Source: a virus
Lineage: Duplodnaviria > Heunggongvirae > Uroviricota > Caudoviricetes
Virus record (IMG/VR): IMGVR_UViG_2645727970_000011
Coordinates: 1-35,266 of that record
Length of the DNA stretch: 35,266 nt
Strand: one strand, 5' to 3'
Numbering within the stretch: the first letter of the stretch is position 1; the number at the start of each line of letters is the position of its first letter. Below the pieces are notes generated by a model. The model had not been told where the DNA came from and made no database searches. It was given only the letters and a program-made list of their open reading frames with translations. Shown one piece after another: positions 1 through 31,803 of the stretch. Position numbers and translations under genes: made by a program.

Positions 1-63
1 TATTACTGCTTTGTTCTGTGCAGCACGAAGCATCTGGTGATTGATGGCTATTTCATTGCGCAT
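1..63 (-). CDS. 5' end of an unidentified early-left-operon gene, truncated by the window start
   Basis: Minus-strand ATG at 63..61 opens MRNEIAINHQMLRAAQNKAVI... which runs off the window; lies directly downstream of the cIII homolog in the leftward operon. Confidence 0.35.
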   Translation of the reverse strand, partial: MRNEIAINHQMLRAAQNKAVI

Positions 64-179
64 AATAAGACCTCAACTCTTTTCCATCCGTCACGTAATT
101 TACGGGTGATTCGTTCAAGTAAAGATTCATTTAGTTGGAAGGCACCCATGCGAGCGCCTCCCGCGATTGCGTAAATCAT
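48..179 (-). CDS. cIII: CIII-like protease-inhibitor peptide (43 aa); below the 60-aa cutoff of the ORF track
   Basis: Hand translation MIYAIAGGARMGAFQLNESLLERITRKLRDGWKRVEVLLCAMK; the core ESLLERITRKLRDGWKR and the M-YAIAG N-terminus match lambda CIII as I recall it; AAGGAA Shine-Dalgarno about 7 nt upstream. Confidence 0.7.
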   Translation of the reverse strand: MIYAIAGGARMGAFQLNESLLERITRKLRDGWKRVEVLLCAMK

Positions 180-203
180 GGGTGGTTCCTTATGTTGGTT
201 TTA

Positions 204-1172
204 TTAGTAGGTTATTTTTGTTGCGAATACTTCGCCTTTTACGATGGCTGTTATGATATTTTTAGCAACATCTTCTGATGCGCCAACCTTGATAAGGTCA
301 GCAAGTATTTTGTTATTTACTTCTTTCCGGTGAGCTTTATCCTTTGCTCTGCGCTCTTCTTCGTCCTTGATTCTTTTTTCTTCTGCTATTCTGGCTTGCT
401 CTTTTGCTTCAGCCTCGCGCCGGATTCGTTCAGCCTCCTCCTGTGCTTTTCGGCGTTCTGCTTCAATTGCCGCCTGCTTTTCTCTTTCAGCTCGTTCTGC
501 TGCCTCTTTTGCTTCGCGCTGTGCTCGTTGCTCGGCTTCAATGCGTTCACGCTCTGCACGTTCCGCTGCGGCCTTAGCTTCTGCTTCTCGCCTTGCTGCT
601 GCTTCAATTTCGGCTTTTGCCTTTGCTTCGGCTTCTGCTCTGGCTTTCTCTTCAGCTTCTCTTTTTAAGCGTTCTTCATGCTCTCGCTTTTCCTGCTCCG
701 CTTTGAGTCTTGCCTCTTCTCTTTGGCGGTCAAATTCGCGATCCATCAAAATCGCTATTTCATGGTCAGACTCAATTTGCTTTGCGAGAGCTTCAGCTGC
801 TGCCTTAGCTTCTTCTTCGGCTTTAATCCGCGCCTGTTCTTCCTCATAATCAGTAAGAGGCTGGCGCGCCTTGGCTTTCAGTTCATCAAGGCGATCGCGC
901 ACTGTCTTGCGGTTAGCATCAATTAGCTTTGGAATTTCCTTCAGTTCAGCAACAAGGTCTTTACCAAGACCATCGAGATATGTTTTCGTCTGCGCAACTT
1001 TATACGCCAGAGAAGCGATCTCCTTTCTGCCCTTTGCCGTTGTGATATCAGGCACAAAGGACATAACTTCACGTTCAACCTTTTGAAGGATTTCTTCAAT
1101 CTGGTCGGCAGACTGAAATACAGTCATTGCATTTGCTTTTTCAATAACAACTAAATCTGTTACTTCACTCAT
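204..1172 (-). CDS. Hypothetical highly charged coiled-coil protein (322 aa) of the pL operon
   Basis: Track ORF; central ~200 aa is E/A/K/R-rich repeat (AEEKARAEAEAKAKAEIEAAARREAEAKAAAERAERERIEAEQRAQREAKEAAERAEREKQ) between non-repetitive N- and C-terminal domains; GGAGG-type SD upstream of the ATG at 1172. Confidence 0.75.
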   Translation of the reverse strand: MSEVTDLVVIEKANAMTVFQSADQIEEILQKVEREVMSFVPDITTAKGRKEIASLAYKVAQTKTYLDGLGKDLVAELKEIPKLIDANRKTVRDRLDELKAKARQPLTDYEEEQARIKAEEEAKAAAEALAKQIESDHEIAILMDREFDRQREEARLKAEQEKREHEERLKREAEEKARAEAEAKAKAEIEAAARREAEAKAAAERAERERIEAEQRAQREAKEAAERAEREKQAAIEAERRKAQEEAERIRREAEAKEQARIAEEKRIKDEEERRAKDKAHRKEVNNKILADLIKVGASEDVAKNIITAIVKGEVFATKITY

Positions 1173-1207
1173 ATATCCTCCTTAATTTGTATGCGTCAAA
1201 TCCGCGC

Positions 1208-1519
1208 TCAGGCTGCTGAGGTTTCTTCTTTCAGGCTTTCGATATATTTACGTGGGTCGTCGTAACATTGGCATTCGCTGTACCAATCTACCCAGCGATC
1301 CGTAAGCCCCATCTCTGATAAATCTTCATCAGTAATGCTCTCATCCCACATCTCAAGGCCGTTAGCATTGCAGTAGTCAGGCTTGATATTGTTGTCATAC
1401 TGAAAGGCATCATAATCAGCCAGTGCATCCATCAGGCGAACACCCTCTTCAACACTTGCCACTTCTACAATGAACGGCTTCATAGGAACTTGCGGGATAT
1501 GCCAGACACGTAATTTCAT
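1208..1519 (-). CDS. Hypothetical acidic protein (103 aa)
   Basis: Track ORF starting at ATG 1519 with a GGAGG SD just upstream (complement of 1524..1528); no recognisable family. Confidence 0.6.
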   Translation of the reverse strand: MKLRVWHIPQVPMKPFIVEVASVEEGVRLMDALADYDAFQYDNNIKPDYCNANGLEMWDESITDEDLSEMGLTDRWVDWYSECQCYDDPRKYIESLKEETSAA

Positions 1520-1531
1520 ATTTCCTCCGTC

Positions 1532-1558
1532 AAAAAAATGCCCTCACACTGGAGGGCA
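1532..1558 (-). terminator. Rho-independent terminator on the minus strand
   Basis: Minus strand reads a 7-bp stem (tgccctc / gagggca, plus-strand 1539..1545 and 1552..1558) with 6-nt loop followed by a run of seven U (plus-strand A7 at 1532..1538). Confidence 0.7.
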
Positions 1559-1619
1559 AAGAAGATTTCCAATAATCAGAACAAGTCGGCTCCTGTTTAG
1601 TTACGAGCGACATTGCTCC

Positions 1620-1647
1620 GTGTATTCACTCGTTGGAATGAATACAC
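1620..1647. other. Intergenic hairpin (9-bp stem, 10-nt loop)
   Basis: gtgtattca (1620..1628) pairs with tgaatacac (1639..1647); sits just downstream of the 156-aa gene; no U-tract on either strand. Confidence 0.4.
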
Positions 1648-1661
1648 AGTGCTTATTCGTA

Positions 1662-2132
1662 CTAATAAAACACCCAGTTTTCTGTTTCTTGGTTGTGTCC
1701 AAAGTTATATTCAATATCTGGTGTTGATGTATCAATATTTTTCATCCCATCAACAAGAGTTGATACAACAGCCAAATCTTGTTTTATTCTCATTAAATGG
1801 TATTTCTTCCGACGCAATAAACTTTCAATAGCAAGTTTCTTCGTTGGGAATGCAAAAGATCTTTCTGCATTTTTTGCTACTTTCTTAATTGCATATCTAT
1901 TTCTCCTTTGTTTCCATTCCTGTAACCACTGATTTGGTGCTGGTTTAAAATCAACAATCCAATGCGCAGGAACCAACCATGCATAATGCTCTGTCTGATG
2001 AAAAGCTATATATTGAAGTGCGAATATTTTGATTCCATCTTCTTCAACTGTCGCTTGGAATCTCCAGAAAACAGGCATTCCATTATGTTCAGTTTCTGAT
2101 TCAGGAAAAGGTACGCTCCATGATTTTGTCAT
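1662..2132 (-). CDS. Hypothetical protein (156 aa), AT-rich moron candidate
   Basis: Track ORF; GAGGTG SD before the ATG at 2132; visibly AT-rich compared with neighbouring genes; flanked by minus-strand terminators at 2181..2206 and 1532..1558. Confidence 0.65.
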   Translation of the reverse strand: MTKSWSVPFPESETEHNGMPVFWRFQATVEEDGIKIFALQYIAFHQTEHYAWLVPAHWIVDFKPAPNQWLQEWKQRRNRYAIKKVAKNAERSFAFPTKKLAIESLLRRKKYHLMRIKQDLAVVSTLVDGMKNIDTSTPDIEYNFGHNQETENWVFY

Positions 2133-2180
2133 ATCTCACCTCAAATAATTCAGTGCAGTGTTTATTCTGTTGTTTATGCC

Positions 2181-2206
2181 AAAAATAAAGGCCGACTATG
2201 CGGCCT
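2181..2206 (-). terminator. Rho-independent terminator on the minus strand, overlapping the stop of the upstream gene
   Basis: aggccg (2189..2194) / cggcct (2201..2206) stem with 6-nt loop, followed on the minus strand by uuauuuuu (plus-strand 2181..2188). Confidence 0.6.
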
Positions 2207-2819
2207 CGGAAGGAAGTCCAATCATCTTATTCAAATCTTCTACCCGTAAAGCAGGAAGTGCTGTACTTGCTTTATCTGCTTCTTTTGGTAGCAATTCTTT
2301 GCTTTCAGGCCAAACTTCAATAAGTCGCTTAACTGTTGTGACTGAGTTCAAAGCAGCCCATACATTTGATTCGATATCCTTTTTCTTGGCTTCAAGTTTT
2401 TGTTGCAATGCGCAGATTTCATCAAACCTTTTTGTTATTTCGTGTTCTGCGTCAAACATGCATTTATCTTTTTCTGGGGTGGGGAGCAATATATCTTCAC
2501 CGTTGCCGTCTTTTCCGTATGAATGCCAGCCAACCCTTCTTCCAGATACAGTCAGATAAATCGAAGCAGAACGAACATCGCATGAGTAAAATGAACATCC
2601 CATCTTCTCAAGTTCTTCACTTATAGCTGCTAACTTGGATGATAACCGATCCACTTCCTCAGTTTTCTTTTTACCGCCAAACGCAATAACTCTGGCGTCA
2701 AGTGCAAGCTGGTTCTTTAACTTTGTTACTTCTTCAAGTTCAGTGAAAACCCCAGACTTAATTAAAGCGTTACGAGCGATTTCCTCTTTCATTCTCGTAG
2801 TTAAGCGGATTGATGACAT
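2196..2819 (-). CDS. Hypothetical protein (~207 aa) of the pL operon
   Basis: Track ORF 2196..2834 begins with TTG; an in-frame ATG at 2819 has a GAGG SD 7 nt upstream, giving MSSIRLTTRMKEEIARNA...; no recognised family. Confidence 0.6.
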   Translation of the reverse strand: MSSIRLTTRMKEEIARNALIKSGVFTELEEVTKLKNQLALDARVIAFGGKKKTEEVDRLSSKLAAISEELEKMGCSFYSCDVRSASIYLTVSGRRVGWHSYGKDGNGEDILLPTPEKDKCMFDAEHEITKRFDEICALQQKLEAKKKDIESNVWAALNSVTTVKRLIEVWPESKELLPKEADKASTALPALRVEDLNKMIGLPSEAA

Positions 2820-2955
2820 ATTAATTCCTCTCAAATAAGTGGTTTGCTGCCTAATTTCATTTTCTGGCGACCAACACAGGTCACACCCATTTCACTGCGT
2901 GGCTTGCGGTAGTAAATACGGTTATTTATGTCATTAAAAACCAGCGTGAGCGTGG

Positions 2956-3222
2956 TTATTTTTTCTTTCCAAGAGATGGAAGCCCTCCAGAATAATCTGG
3001 ACCACTTGAACGATGCATTTGATACAATATTGCGTTTTTGTTGGCGTTTAGTGGCTTTGTTGCGAAAGAAATTTTTTCTCGTTTTACATCTCTTATCATC
3101 ATCAACTCACGTTCTGATGCTTTTGGATGATAATCATTGATATGCTTCCATGCTGCCTTGGCGCTGAATTTTCTTCCACATAAAGGGCAATAGCATTTAT
3201 ATGATACTTGTTTGCTAGTCAT
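2956..3222 (-). CDS. Small C2H2-type zinc-finger-like protein (88 aa)
   Basis: Translation contains YKCYCPLCGRKFSAKAAWKHINDYH, i.e. C-x2-C-x12-H-x4-H spacing of a classical C2H2 finger; the ATG at 3222 lies 2 nt after the N stop, so it is co-transcribed from pL. Confidence 0.6.
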   Translation of the reverse strand: MTSKQVSYKCYCPLCGRKFSAKAAWKHINDYHPKASERELMMIRDVKREKISFATKPLNANKNAILYQMHRSSGPDYSGGLPSLGKKK

Positions 3223-3224
3223 TT

Positions 3225-3533
3225 CTATCTCGCCGTAATTGATTTCATTGACCTGTAACCAGCAGCATACAGTGCAACTTCAGGCAAACAAACGCTTCCG
3301 CCATTCGCATCTGTATTTGATTTACTGATGATGCCGAGTGATATTGCTTTTTCAGAAAGACTTAAACGCTTTCTCGGTTCTTCCTGAACAGCTTCCTCAC
3401 TGTCTGTGCCGAAGATCGAATCGATGATGTTGCAGATGGAATCACGCTCGATAGCCAGCTTTCTGCGCCGCTCATGACGGCGAGTTTTGGCATTTCCTGC
3501 AAATGTTGATTTTCCGTACACGATTACCGTCAT
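3225..3533 (-). CDS. N: N-type transcription antiterminator (P22 gene 24-like), 102 aa
   Basis: Internal ATG at 3533 with GAGGA SD 7 nt upstream; arginine-rich motif GNAKTRRHERRRKLAIER matches the P22 N boxB-binding peptide as I recall it; the track ORF extends upstream from a GTG and that N-terminal extension is rejected. Confidence 0.85.
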   Translation of the reverse strand: MTVIVYGKSTFAGNAKTRRHERRRKLAIERDSICNIIDSIFGTDSEEAVQEEPRKRLSLSEKAISLGIISKSNTDANGGSVCLPEVALYAAGYRSMKSITAR

Positions 3534-3652
3534 GATGTTTTCCTCATGTGAAATGGCTTTGGTGGTGATGCGCCAGGTGCTGATCTTCTGGTTGCTGTCG
3601 TTGCAGCTGCAATTCACATCACCGCCAAACCCATCTCGTTTGGTATCTGTTT

Positions 3653-3687
3653 GCGCTTTGTCAGCGCCCCATCGAAGTTAAAGAGCC
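3653..3687 (-). promoter_or_regulatory. nutL site: boxA plus boxB
   Basis: Minus strand reads GGCTCTTTAAC (boxA-like, 3677..3687) then GCGCTGACAAAGCGC (3653..3667), the P22-type boxB-left hairpin from memory; positioned between pL and N. Confidence 0.8.
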
Positions 3688-3732
3688 TGCCAATCTGTTC
3701 CGTTTGGCTTCCAGCTTCCTGCTGATGGCTAA

Positions 3733-3761
3733 ATAGTACGATGTGTGCTTTATTGAGTCAA
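3733..3761 (-). promoter_or_regulatory. pL-like leftward early promoter with overlapping operator
   Basis: Minus strand reads TTGACT (3761..3756), a 17-bp spacer, then TACTAT (3738..3733); the spacer holds an AGTAC-containing motif that recurs in the cI-cro intergenic region. Confidence 0.6.
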
Positions 3762-3821
3762 TACAAAATGTTCTAAATGCGGTTAGTTTTTTATAACACT
3801 TTGTATTTTATTGATTTATAT

Positions 3822-3856
3822 TTTGGAAAAAGAAAACCCGACGCTAAGGTCGGGTT
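3822..3856 (-). terminator. Rho-independent terminator downstream of cI
   Basis: Minus strand: stem acccgac / gtcgggt (3835..3842 with 3849..3856), 6-nt loop, then a U-rich tract (uuuucuuuuucc). Confidence 0.7.
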
Positions 3857-3886
3857 ATTGTTGTGTGTTTTAGAGTGGTGAGGCTG

Positions 3887-4546
3887 TTAACTAAATGTCT
3901 CTTCAGGCCACTGGCTGGCGATAACTTTCCCTACTACGGAACAGCTATCATTGCATGGGATCATTGGATATTGCGGGTTTAGTGGTTGTAGGAACACCTG
4001 ACCGCTATCCCTGATCAGTTTCTTGAAGGTAAACTCGTCACCACCAAGTCTGGCTATGCAGAAATCACCTGGCTCAACAGCCTGCTCAGGGTCAACGAGA
4101 ATTAACATCCCGTCAGGAAAGCTTGGCTTGGATCCTGTTGGTGCGGTCATGGAATTACCTTCAACTTCAAGCCAAAACGCACAATCACTGGCTTTTTTGG
4201 TTGTGCTGACCCATCTCTCCGCATCGCCTTTGGTAAAGGTTCTAAGCTCAGGCGAGAACATCCCGGCCTGAACATGAGAAAAAACAGGGTACTCATATTG
4301 TTTTTTAACGGGGGCAGATGAGTATTCGCCAACAGGTGAAAATGTACCGTCGTGGTTGAATGAGACGTTATCAATACCAAGGTATTTAAACACCACACCA
4401 ATCTCGTCAAGAGATGGATGACGAGATCCGCGCAACCAGTGACCAATTCCACCCTGCGTCATACCAAGCTCTTCAGCTAACTTCTCTTGAGTTATGCCGA
4501 GTTCTTTCATTCTGGATCTAGCCAGTTCATACCATTTCATTTTCAT
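3887..4546 (-). CDS. cI: CI-type prophage repressor (HTH plus LexA-like S24 autopeptidase domain), 219 aa
   Basis: Start taken at the MKMKW ATG (4546) rather than the longer track ORF; N-terminal HTH ([22 protein letters not shown]), Ala-Gly cleavage site (HVQAGMF), GNSM catalytic serine motif and downstream Lys; divergent from cro. Confidence 0.85.
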
Positions 4547-4657
4547 ATCCTTATTATTACGCTCTGTACTAAAACCATCCATGCACAAGATGTATTTTTT
4601 GTTTGCATTCCAAAAGTACATGTCGTATTATTGTTTCATGGTTACTATGGAGGGCAT
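4547..4657. promoter_or_regulatory. oR/pR/pRM divergent control region
   Basis: Rightward pR candidate: TTGCAT (4603..4608), 17-bp spacer, TATTAT (4626..4631), then GGAGGG SD and cro ATG at 4658; AGTAC-containing operator-like motifs at about 4562..4576 and 4611..4625. pRM not resolved. Confidence 0.6.
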
Positions 4658-4873
4658 ATGAGCAACCTACGAAAATATCGAGAGTCACTGAATATCTCTC
4701 AAACAACACTTGCTAAGGCGGTTGGATGCACACAGGGAGCTATCGGACATTGGGAATCTGGTCGTCGCTTCCCAGACCTTAAAACATGCCGTGCTCTTGT
4801 TGCGTGCCTAAACAAGTTAGGCGCAAAAGTCAGTCTTGATGACGTGTTCCCACCGGAACACAAAGCCGCTTAA
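4658..4873 (+). CDS. cro: Cro-like HTH repressor (71 aa)
   Basis: ATG at 4658 after GGAGGG SD; HTH motif QTTLAKAVGCTQGAIGHWESG; the track ORF from 4487 is an upstream open-frame artefact. Confidence 0.8.
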   Translation: MSNLRKYRESLNISQTTLAKAVGCTQGAIGHWESGRRFPDLKTCRALVACLNKLGAKVSLDDVFPPEHKAA

Positions 4874-12223: not shown

Positions 12224-12298
12224 GGGTCAGTCGTATAAAGGTCATTACGGAAGGCTGTTAACCTTCTTATCGTGGTTCGAGTCCACGCTGTCCCGCCA
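12224..12298 (+). tRNA. tRNA-Asn (anticodon GUU), 75 nt including encoded CCA
   Basis: Hand-folded cloverleaf: acceptor GGGTCAG / CTGTCCC (one U-U mismatch), anticodon stem GAAGG / CCTTC with loop CTGTTAA, T-arm CGTGG-TTCGAGT-CCACG, discriminator G and CCA. Not run through tRNAscan. Confidence 0.6.
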
Positions 12299-12303
12299 AA
12301 CAT

Positions 12304-12379
12304 GCTGGTTTAGCTCCAATGGTAGAGCGGTCGCCTTGTAAGCGAATGGGTAGCGGTTCAAGTCCGTTAACCAGCACCA
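12304..12379 (+). tRNA. tRNA-Thr (anticodon UGU), 76 nt including encoded CCA
   Basis: Hand-folded cloverleaf: perfect 7-bp acceptor GCTGGTT / AACCAGC, D-arm GCTC-CAATGGTA-GAGC, anticodon loop CTTGTAA, T-arm AGCGG-TTCAAGT-CCGTT, discriminator A and CCA. Confidence 0.65.
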
Positions 12380-30856: not shown

Positions 30857-30924
30857 AGTTGAAGCCCCAACTGCGGGAACAGTCAGGGCTTCGGTATCAA
30901 CAAATCGGATTAGGAAATATTGAC

Positions 30925-31803
30925 ATGAAAAGTATAGCAAAGGCACAAAACGATTTCACCATCTTCAAATTCGGCGACAGTGAAATCCGCGTCATCAACA
31001 AATGCGGTGAGCCGTGGTTTGTAGCAAAAGATGTTTGTGATGCTTTAACCCTGACTAACTCACGCAAGGCGCTTACTGCACTTGATGACGATGAAAAGGG
31101 AGTAACTTTAAGTTACACCCTTGGTGGTGAGCAGAATCTAAGCATTGTTAGCGAATCAGGTATGTATACATTGGTTCTGCGCTGCCGCGATGCTGTCAAT
31201 AAAGGTTCATTACCGCACAAATTCCGCAAGTGGGTAACAGCAGAAGTTCTGCCTTCAATTCGCAAACATGGCGAGTATGTGAAAGGCAAGAAAACCACTG
31301 TTGAGGAAAGAACACCGCTACGAGATGCAGTAAACATGCTGGTAGGAAAGAAAGGACTTCGCTATGACGATGCATACAATATGGTTCATCAGCGTTTTGG
31401 TATTGACAGCATTGATGAACTTTCAATTGAACAAATCCCGCTGGCCGTAGAGTACATCCACAGGGTAGTGCTTGAAGGTGAATTCATCGGAAAACAAGAG
31501 AAGAAAACCAACGAGCTTTCTGCAAAAGAAGCAAACAGTCTTGTATGGTTATGGGATTATGCCAACCGCTCACAGGCATTATTCCGCGAACTGTATCCGG
31601 CATTAAAACAAATTCAATCGAACTATTCCGGCAGATGCTACGACTATGGTCATGAGTTCTCGTATGTTATCGGAATGGCGAGAGACGTTTTAATCAATCA
31701 CACACGAGATGTTGATATCAATGAGCCAGACGGACCAACGAATCTTTCCGCATGGATGAGACTTAAGAATAAAGAATTACCTCCTTCAGTACATAACTAC
31801 TGA
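30925..31803 (+). CDS. ant: Antirepressor Ant with Bro-N/AntA-type N-terminal domain (~292 aa)
   Basis: ATG at 30925 with AGGA SD (track ORF starts at TTG 30859); N-terminal [30 protein letters not shown] is a Bro-N/AntA-type signature; position after arc as in P22. Confidence 0.75.

Follow-up and report, generated by a model that had tools for sequence, protein, structure and literature searches.

A P22 gene 17 orthologue and an orphan Nmad5-family gene in the early-left operon of a P22-like Escherichia coli phage

What do the accessory genes between N and cIII do for the phage that carries them? In lambda and P22 the slot from N to cIII/kil holds ral, sieB/esc, ea10/DUF2528 and kil, all non-essential early-left accessory genes (for lambda, see the gene table in PMC10695390). 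We analyzed this slot in a P22-like (Lederbergvirus-type) E. coli phage, IMG/VR record IMGVR_UViG_2645727970_000011. The whole 35,266-nucleotide stretch of DNA is referred to here as the window. The initial annotation had placed a 207-aa protein and an acidic 103-aa protein in the slot, assigned neither to a family that it could name, and proposed both as candidates for counter-defence or modulation of the host.

Both reading frames exist as described, on the minus strand in the interval from N to cIII, and the flanks also match the description, with N, cIII, a 156-aa low-GC ORF and an 88-aa zinc-finger-like ORF. The features of the interval are the following:

3225 to 3536, minus strand: antiterminator N of the P22 type (gene 24 type); PF25694 N_peptide, E 1.4e-36, residues 29-130 of a long ORF.
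2956 to 3222, minus strand: 88-aa basic ORF with a C2H2-like zinc-finger motif, directly after N; phrog_20899, E 2e-64.
2196 to 2819, minus strand: Nmad5-family protein, 207 aa, ATG at 2819; PF18757 and phrog_1965.
2188 to 2207, minus strand: terminator-like hairpin GAGGCCGCATAGTCGGCCTT with TATTTTT behind it; it overlaps the stop codon of Nmad5; consensus scan and sequence.
1662 to 2132, minus strand: 156-aa basic protein, pI 9.1, GC 35%; phrog_1636, E 2.3e-111.
1539 to 1558, minus strand: terminator-like hairpin TGCCCTCCAGTGTGAGGGCA followed by TTTTTTT; consensus scan and direct sequence reading.
1208 to 1519, minus strand: gene 17 orthologue, 103 aa, acidic; PF17420 GP17 and phrog_1510.
204 to 1172, minus strand: coiled-coil protein of 322 aa with many E, A and K residues, whose gene separates gene 17 from cIII; phrog_1376, E 2e-110.
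48 to 179, minus strand: cIII, 43 aa; phrog_550, E 1.6e-20; motif ESLLERITRKLRDGWKR seen in the translation, and cIII annotated here in related records.

The reading frame of N is open back to a GTG at 3617, its start is probably the ATG at 3536, and an arginine-rich motif, GNAKTRRHERRRKLAIE, is visible in the translation. Pfam zinc-finger matches of the 88-aa ORF are all sub-threshold (best zf-Di19, E 0.0011). The 322-aa coiled-coil protein matched no Pfam family and is labelled 'TolA protein' in related phage records. An Rfam scan of the interval found no RNA family.

We rejected the possibility that the 103-aa and 207-aa ORFs are spurious, on the grounds of conservation and dN/dS. Homologues of the two proteins number hundreds to thousands each, and both genes are under purifying selection, with dN/dS of 0.22 for the 207-aa gene (77 copies) and 0.10 for the 103-aa gene compared with P22. 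The view that neither belongs to a nameable family does not hold. The 207-aa protein scores 239.1 bits against PF18757 Nmad5 (cut-off 27 bits; E 6.4e-71), spanning positions 1-206 of the 206-position model, and the 103-aa protein scores 185.7 bits against PF17420 GP17 (cut-off 25 bits; E 1.6e-55; residues 1-98 of the 98-position model) and reaches E 9.5e-58 against phrog_1510. The homology and structure searches that the initial annotation had advised yielded these two Pfam families and no solved relative: single-sequence and profile searches of the 103-, 156- and 207-aa proteins against solved structures gave nothing significant, and Foldseek against BFVD with Nmad5 returned only other Nmad5 or unnamed phage proteins. 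Likewise, the same three proteins gave no match of the ral, sieB, kil, Gam/Abc2 or Ocr/ArdA type in Pfam, PHROGs, NCBIfam and PADLOC. Nor did the searches show clear homology to proteins of recombination or housekeeping, which had been named as evidence against the counter-defence proposal.

The 207-aa gene is an ordinary full-length member of the Nmad5 family, and an orphan with no modification cassette alongside. Its reading frame stays open beyond the ATG, back to a TTG at 2834. Homologues carry the RefSeq name 'Nmad5 family putative nucleotide modification protein'. The family comprises 2,301 clusters at 50% identity (E<=1e-3), and nearly all of the best 150 of these are, like the window protein, stand-alone and about 200 aa long. 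The window protein carries the conserved C-terminal motif of the family, VTTVK[KR]L..WPE..ELLP ... LPA...DLN..IGLP, of which the LPA...DLN..IGLP tail is invariant and probably disordered.

In 80 related E. coli prophage loci Nmad5 is 94-100% identical, and in nearly all of them it lies directly after N or one small ORF later; the exceptions are two loci with several small ORFs between N and Nmad5. Its downstream neighbours vary across the 80 loci. Gene 17 occurs together with Nmad5 in only four of the 80, and on this count we rejected a functional pair of gp17 and Nmad5. In other phages Nmad5 belongs to modules of replication or nucleotide metabolism and sometimes to cassettes for thymidine hypermodification, and its neighbours there are thymidylate synthase, DNA polymerase, helicase, or RecE together with an origin initiator. 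In contrast, the window copy and the 80 prophage copies are orphans beside N in the PL operon.

The AF2 model of Nmad5 begins with three helices, followed by a beta-hairpin, a long helix and, at low confidence, a conserved tail; it displays no enzyme-like fold. At no position is a His, Asp, Cys or Ser residue conserved in 80% or more of 141 family members, which are about 30% identical. From this lack of a catalytic signature and of an enzyme fold, together with the gene context, we infer that Nmad5 is most likely a non-enzymatic helical adaptor, whose invariant C-terminal peptide would dock onto a DNA replication or nucleotide-metabolism protein of the phage or the host.

Rather unlikely, in our view, is that Nmad5 is an early counter-defence or host-takeover protein that inhibits or evades host immunity or a host process. 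Its place right after N, or one gene further on, in almost all of the 80 loci would suit such a role, since the same slot in P22 holds sieB/esc and ral, and the Dhillonvirus Nmad5 is dispensable and apparently toxic to clone. The only experimental tie of Nmad5 to defence is a Dhillonvirus missense allele, a Lys-to-Glu change, that escapes the Tmn defence system (PMC11846954, which cites Iyer et al. 2013 for Nmad5 as its reference 29). If the published numbering is that of phage Oekolampad, the escape lysine appears to map to K164/R165, in the most conserved motif of the family. However, deletion of nmad5 left Tmn sensitivity of Dhillonvirus unchanged (PMC11846954), indicating that wild-type Nmad5 neither triggers nor inhibits Tmn. 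We compared the window protein with its relatives from Dhillonvirus (PhiSMS22, PhiSMA8 and Oekolampad bas18_0007), Yuavirus PAE1 (Orf51) and Pam3 (gp51). All have the C-terminal motif in common, and with it the K/R positions that the Tmn-escape mutation appears to hit; identity is only about 34-42%, over the C-terminal half. Typical anti-defence genes are patchy and fast-evolving, unlike the Nmad5 family, which is very large, uniform in length and located inside replication modules in lytic phages; moreover, no PADLOC or known anti-restriction family was matched. A more specific form of the proposal is equally doubtful: that lambdoid Nmad5, uncoupled from DNA modification, serves as an immediate post-N host-takeover or counter-defence factor, and that its C-terminal peptide and TxK[KR]L..WPE dock onto a host or defence protein, by the surface that the Lys-to-Glu escape change of Dhillonvirus seems to alter.

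We consider it improbable that Nmad5 is an enzyme or an obligatory cofactor of DNA or nucleotide modification, by which the lambdoid copy would evade restriction. The family name suggests this, as do several gene neighbourhoods. Nmad5 lies between aGPT-Pplase1 and thymidylate synthase in Pseudanabaena phage Pam3, adjoins thymidylate synthase and 5'-deoxynucleotidase in Yuavirus PAE1, adjoins ThyX in the N4-like phage SP-076, and is listed in the thymidine-hypermodification cassette of SN1 and M6 phages (PMC9476957). Many homologues, however, are found beside polymerase, helicase or RecE with no modification gene annotated there, and the association with a nucleotide or DNA-base modification cassette, on which the name Nmad5 is based, is not seen in the window. 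A Pfam scan of 27 ORFs of the window, a stretch that is without about 4-5 kb between int and cIII, revealed no thymidylate synthase/hydroxymethylase, aGPT-Pplase, kinase, PLP or radical-SAM gene; in two related annotated phages, recombination genes occupy that region past cIII/kil. Likewise, the annotated early-left regions of related phages include no modification gene, and in the 80 lambdoid loci, where neighbours were labelled solely by similarity to window genes and not by Pfam, no ORF next to Nmad5 is as large or as recurrent as a modification cassette would lead one to expect. The model and the residue conservation of Nmad5 also make a catalytic role less likely.

Downstream of Nmad5 lies a separately inserted low-GC cassette. 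Comparison with two related loci, L087 and L025, set its boundaries: the 156-aa ORF is borne on a precise 498-bp insertion (window 1653-2150) that is missing from both. The initial annotation had counted a moron among the genes of the slot. The 156-aa gene is indeed a discrete insertion of deviant composition, with a GC content of 35% versus 47% for the window, but a promoter and terminator of its own, the other mark of a moron as an autonomously expressed inserted gene, were not found within the insert. A crude consensus scan found no sigma-70-like site in 1653-2150, and of the two hairpins on either side of the ORF one is part of the Nmad5 module and the other of the gene 17 module. The hairpin at 2188-2207 is part of the Nmad5 module (2916..2151) common to L087 and L025, and the one at 1539-1558 lies inside the block 1652..1185, which the two loci also have in common. 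The 156-aa protein has 33 homologues in Enterobacterales, down to 55% identity and all unnamed, and in Pfam, NCBIfam and PADLOC it has no match with a meaningful E-value.

By homology, the 103-aa gene is the orthologue of P22 gene 17. The two proteins are of equal length and 86.4% identical over 103/103 aa, and the genes are syntenic, each in the PL operon upstream of cIII. The DNA block containing gene 17 and about 100 bp upstream aligns with P22 at 82%, and this conserved block includes the hairpin at 1539-1558, which sits just upstream of the gene 17 ribosome-binding site and belongs to the gene 17 module. In the P22 RefSeq record the gene order is 24 ... 17, terminator, c3. The host of P22 is Salmonella, whereas that of the 103-aa copy is E. 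coli, and the immediate neighbours differ too: orf87 upstream and c3 directly downstream in P22, the 156-aa cassette upstream and the 322-aa coiled-coil gene downstream in the window. Gene 17 is precisely missing from locus L072. The protein is acidic, as annotated (pI 4.1; 23 D+E versus 9 K+R), and is modelled as a soluble, small alpha/beta domain without a membrane segment. Ea10/DUF2528 occupies the same slot in phage APC_JM3.2, and we rejected its kinship with gp17, since alignment of gp17 against the Ea10/DUF2528 profile gave an hhalign probability of 0.4%.

The function of gene 17 is known from P22. The note on the gene in the P22 RefSeq record reads 'allows growth on phage Fels2 lysogen', and gp17 is reported to counteract Fels-2 exclusion (PMC6486243, PMC9409062); one paper names Fels-1 instead as the prophage concerned, in disagreement with the other sources (PMC4837284). 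Because gene 17 lets P22 grow on Fels-2 lysogens, it counteracts exclusion, and in the light of the P22 genetics 'superinfection exclusion protein', as databases name it, is the wrong name for a protein that opposes exclusion. Judged by its homology to P22 gene 17, the 103-aa gene is this known counter-exclusion gene and not a new candidate. The phenotype itself, growth on Fels-2 (P2-like) lysogens, comes from the P22 literature, and by orthology it would be expected of the window copy. Thus, of the counter-defence roles first proposed, the one for the 103-aa gene stands, as a known assignment made by homology, and the one for Nmad5 keeps the status of a less likely reading.

Our search of the literature found no published biochemical mechanism or target for P22 gp17. 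A screen of 200 accessory genes in ECOR strains took in a close gp17 homologue from phage ST64T (UDP0144), which is absent from the main text, with no phenotype recorded, and neither gp17 nor Nmad5 is present in the supplements of the follow-up paper. We propose that gene 17 would be expressed early in the lytic cycle, when transcription runs past the upstream hairpin, presumably under N antitermination. The protein most likely binds and neutralizes a sensor or effector of the exclusion system; direct binding to the target is what we infer. The proposed target system would be of the abortive-infection type, carried by a resident P2-like, Fels-2-type prophage.

SieA/SieB-type exclusion proteins are usually pictured with a membrane segment, unlike the gp17 model. 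Homologues of gene 17 are common in strictly virulent phages (N4 gp18, Kuttervirus, Gamaleyavirus), which argues against a function in protecting lysogens. In addition, gene 17 should be silent in a lysogen, since the repressor controls the PL operon to which it belongs and a terminator-like hairpin precedes it. Although the family carries the label 'superinfection exclusion' in Pfam, PHROGs and RefSeq alike, these observations, together with the growth on Fels-2 lysogens that gene 17 permits according to the P22 record and two papers (PMC6486243, PMC9409062), make it highly improbable that the prophage expresses the 103-aa protein as a genuine superinfection-exclusion factor against incoming phages.

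Taken as a whole, the interval consists of independent accessory cassettes, shuffled horizontally and strung together in the N-antiterminated early-left (PL) operon, and the general idea of the N-to-cIII interval as a slot for accessory and counter-defence genes is upheld. As a joint explanation, we hold it moderately probable that gene 17 acts in counter-exclusion, Nmad5 as an adaptor, and the 156-aa gene as a separate cassette, all being shuffled modules of the PL operon.

Databases already list both genes, whose families occur in hundreds of sequenced phages and prophages, and the result is mainly a correction of annotation; beyond that, the window contributes no more than a rare mosaic of common cassettes. 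The genetics reported for P22 make a counter-exclusion factor of the family that goes by 'superinfection exclusion protein', and the family has reached virulent phages of the N4-like and Vi1-like kinds with uses in therapy and biocontrol. The name of Nmad5, a very large family of phage proteins, derives from gene neighbourhood only. Lambdoid copies of Nmad5 occur with no modification genes found alongside, and the family name may be a poor guide to their real function. Were lambdoid Nmad5 a counter-defence factor, the name would be misleading, and about 2,300 clusters would gain a new function.

A lambdoid early-left (PL) operon on the minus strand makes up the left end of the window. Its genes, in the order in which they are transcribed, are:

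3887-4621, minus strand: cI repressor (Peptidase_S24 and HTH)
3225-3536, minus strand: P22-type N (PF25694, E 1.4e-36; ORF open to 3617)
2956-3222, minus strand: 88-aa zinc-finger-like ORF (phrog_20899)
2196-2819, minus strand: 207-aa ORF, Nmad5 (PF18757, phrog_1965)
1662-2132, minus strand: 156-aa ORF
1208-1519, minus strand: 103-aa ORF, gene 17 (PF17420, phrog_1510)
204-1172, minus strand: 322-aa coiled-coil "TolA-like" ORF (phrog_1376)
48-179, minus strand: cIII (phrog_550)

The remainder is a P22-like genome encoding a DnaB-type helicase, NinB, RusA, Q, lysis genes, an integrase, a Terminase_3-family large terminase, a tailspike with the P22 head-binding domain and an Ant/sar immI region. 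The closest nucleotide matches to the window are E. coli Lederbergvirus phages. The immI region is of P22 type: the start of a plus-strand gene (30859-31803) for an Ant-like antirepressor, with Bro-N and P22_AR_C domains, is overlapped by the sar antisense RNA on the minus strand (30857-30923; Rfam RF00262, 71.6 bits). Adjacent tRNA genes for Asn(GTT) and Thr(TGT) at 12224-12379 (plus strand) have the Q antiterminator gene on one side and the lysis cassette on the other. From its first ATG, the cI ORF encodes 244 aa with an N-terminal extension ahead of the HTH domain; because related repressors are annotated at 217-243 aa, translation may really begin at an internal Met.

The initial annotation described a 207-aa and an acidic 103-aa protein between N and cIII that matched no nameable family. 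ORF, Pfam and PHROGs calls bear out the coordinates, sizes and flanks of both ORFs, and the 103-aa protein is indeed acidic (pI 4.1). Both proteins, however, matched named families, PF17420 "GP17" (103 aa, E 1.6e-55) and PF18757 "Nmad5" (207 aa, E 6.4e-71, spanning all 206 model positions). The observation is right as anatomy and wrong on "unassigned": both families were already known, gene 17 as a gene and Nmad5 as a family.

Judged by sequence, the 103-aa ORF is gene 17 of phage P22. Its product is 86.4% identical to that of P22 over all 103 residues, and the DNA block, including ~100 bp upstream, gives an 82% alignment to P22. In P22, gene 17 is part of this operon too, placed between ral/orf78/orf87 and c3. 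The gene is under purifying selection (dS 0.76 and dN 0.077 against P22). Invariant residues of gp17 form four motif clusters (PQ.P, YD.FQ, KPDY.N and W.DW).

The P22 RefSeq note states that gene 17 "allows growth on phage Fels2 lysogen". Likewise, two papers report that gp17 is required to overcome exclusion by Fels-2 (PMC6486243, PMC9409062), whereas PMC4837284 names Fels-1, so that the sources conflict over the prophage. Close homologues are named "superinfection exclusion protein" in RefSeq; this family-wide database label is misleading, the opposite of the reported phenotype, since gene 17 frees the phage from exclusion. Release from exclusion fits the location of the gene downstream of a terminator-like hairpin (1558-1539) in the repressed PL operon, the homologues common among strictly virulent phages (N4 gp18, 65% identity; Kuttervirus; Gamaleyavirus) and the AF2 model, a soluble alpha/beta domain (pLDDT 91.7). 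No mechanism or target of gp17 is described in the literature searched. A screen of 200 accessory genes in wild E. coli included a 91% identical homologue from phage ST64T (UDP0144), which is not named among the hits. The counter-defence role proposed for both genes is supported by homology for gene 17. We infer that gp17 may bind directly to, and neutralise, some sensor or effector that a P2-like prophage encodes.

For Nmad5 the counter-defence reading is unproven. The only experiments cited are those on Dhillonviruses, where nmad5 is dispensable and apparently toxic when cloned, and where a Lys-to-Glu substitution, but not deletion of the gene, lets the phage escape the Tmn defence system (PMC11846954). 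Assuming the same residue numbering, the Oekolampad alignment maps the escape lysine to K164/R165 in a conserved TxK[KR]L motif.

That Nmad5 is a modification enzyme is less likely: RefSeq calls close homologues "Nmad5 family putative nucleotide modification protein", and the name derives from hypermodification cassettes, but we found no modification partner genes among the window ORFs scanned, nor do the early-left annotations of related phages list any, and therefore the family's defining association is absent from the window. Here Nmad5 is an orphan, without its eponymous modification context.

With modest confidence, we favour Nmad5 as a non-enzymatic adaptor that would act on DNA replication or nucleotide metabolism. 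Among 141 members (median identity 30%), no His, Asp, Cys or Ser position is conserved at ≥80%. The conserved core comprises an N-terminal TRLT...IV.NA..KAG / VR...LGG segment, a single glycine in a beta-hairpin and a C-terminal VTTVK[KR]L..WPE..ELLP ... LPA...DLN..IGLP segment. The AF2 model (pLDDT 84) shows three N-terminal helices, the beta-hairpin and a long helix; the C-terminal tail is modelled with low confidence yet is highly conserved, a pattern typical of peptides that fold upon a partner. A profile run against 1.8 billion representatives retrieved 2,301 clusters (E≤1e-3), and nearly all of the best 150 are stand-alone proteins of ~200 aa. Elsewhere, Nmad5 lies within replication or nucleotide-metabolism modules: it adjoins thymidylate synthase in Yuavirus PAE1 and N4-like phage SP-076, DNA polymerase in Acinetobacter phage Scuro and a helicase in PD0307, is flanked by aGPT-Pplase1 and thymidylate synthase in Pam3, and, in a Vibrio phage, is close to RecE and an origin initiator. 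In Dhillonvirus it stands alone on the opposite strand, between capsid and lysis genes.

Across 80 IMG/VR E. coli prophage loci, Nmad5 is 94-100% identical, and it is under purifying selection (median dN/dS 0.22 over 77 prophage copies). In nearly all of them it comes first after N, or second behind one small ORF, a position kept over many different N and cI alleles. Its downstream neighbour varies: gene 17, the 156-aa ORF, a 122-aa ORF (Ea10/DUF2528-like on size and slot), the TolA-like gene or cIII. Gene 17 and Nmad5 occur together in just 4 of the 80 loci, and we therefore rejected them as a functional pair.

The basic 88-aa ORF, found in few of these loci, begins directly 3' of the N stop codon and carries a C2H2-like motif, CYCPLCGRKF...HINDYH; its Pfam zinc-finger matches are all sub-threshold. 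The E/A/K-rich 322-aa ORF between gene 17 and cIII, labelled 'TolA protein' or 'cell envelope biogenesis protein' in related phage records, matches phrog_1376 (unknown function) and has no Pfam family; it too is a mosaic cassette that only some related loci have. The 156-aa ORF is basic (pI 9.1), of low GC (35%) and without a family in Pfam, NCBIfam or PADLOC; homologues are conserved in Enterobacterales (identity down to 55%), and a consensus scan of 1653-2150 revealed no dedicated promoter.

Alignment to related loci shows every gene of the interval to be a cassette of its own. The 498-bp block 2150..1653, with the 156-aa ORF, is precisely absent from two related loci (L087, L025), where gene 17 directly follows Nmad5; likewise, block 1516..1181, with gene 17, is precisely absent from a third (L072). 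Terminator-like hairpins belong to the Nmad5 module (2207-2188) and the gene 17 module (1558-1539), neither belonging to the 498-bp insert. No phage record covers at least 80% of window 1-4700, and none of 5,426 complete E. coli genomes (RefSeq) holds the whole 1150-3260 arrangement; part of it is present in 2,253, the best match, NZ_CP023673.1, covering 82% and lacking gene 17. Together, the combination of cassettes is rare, and its component parts are common.
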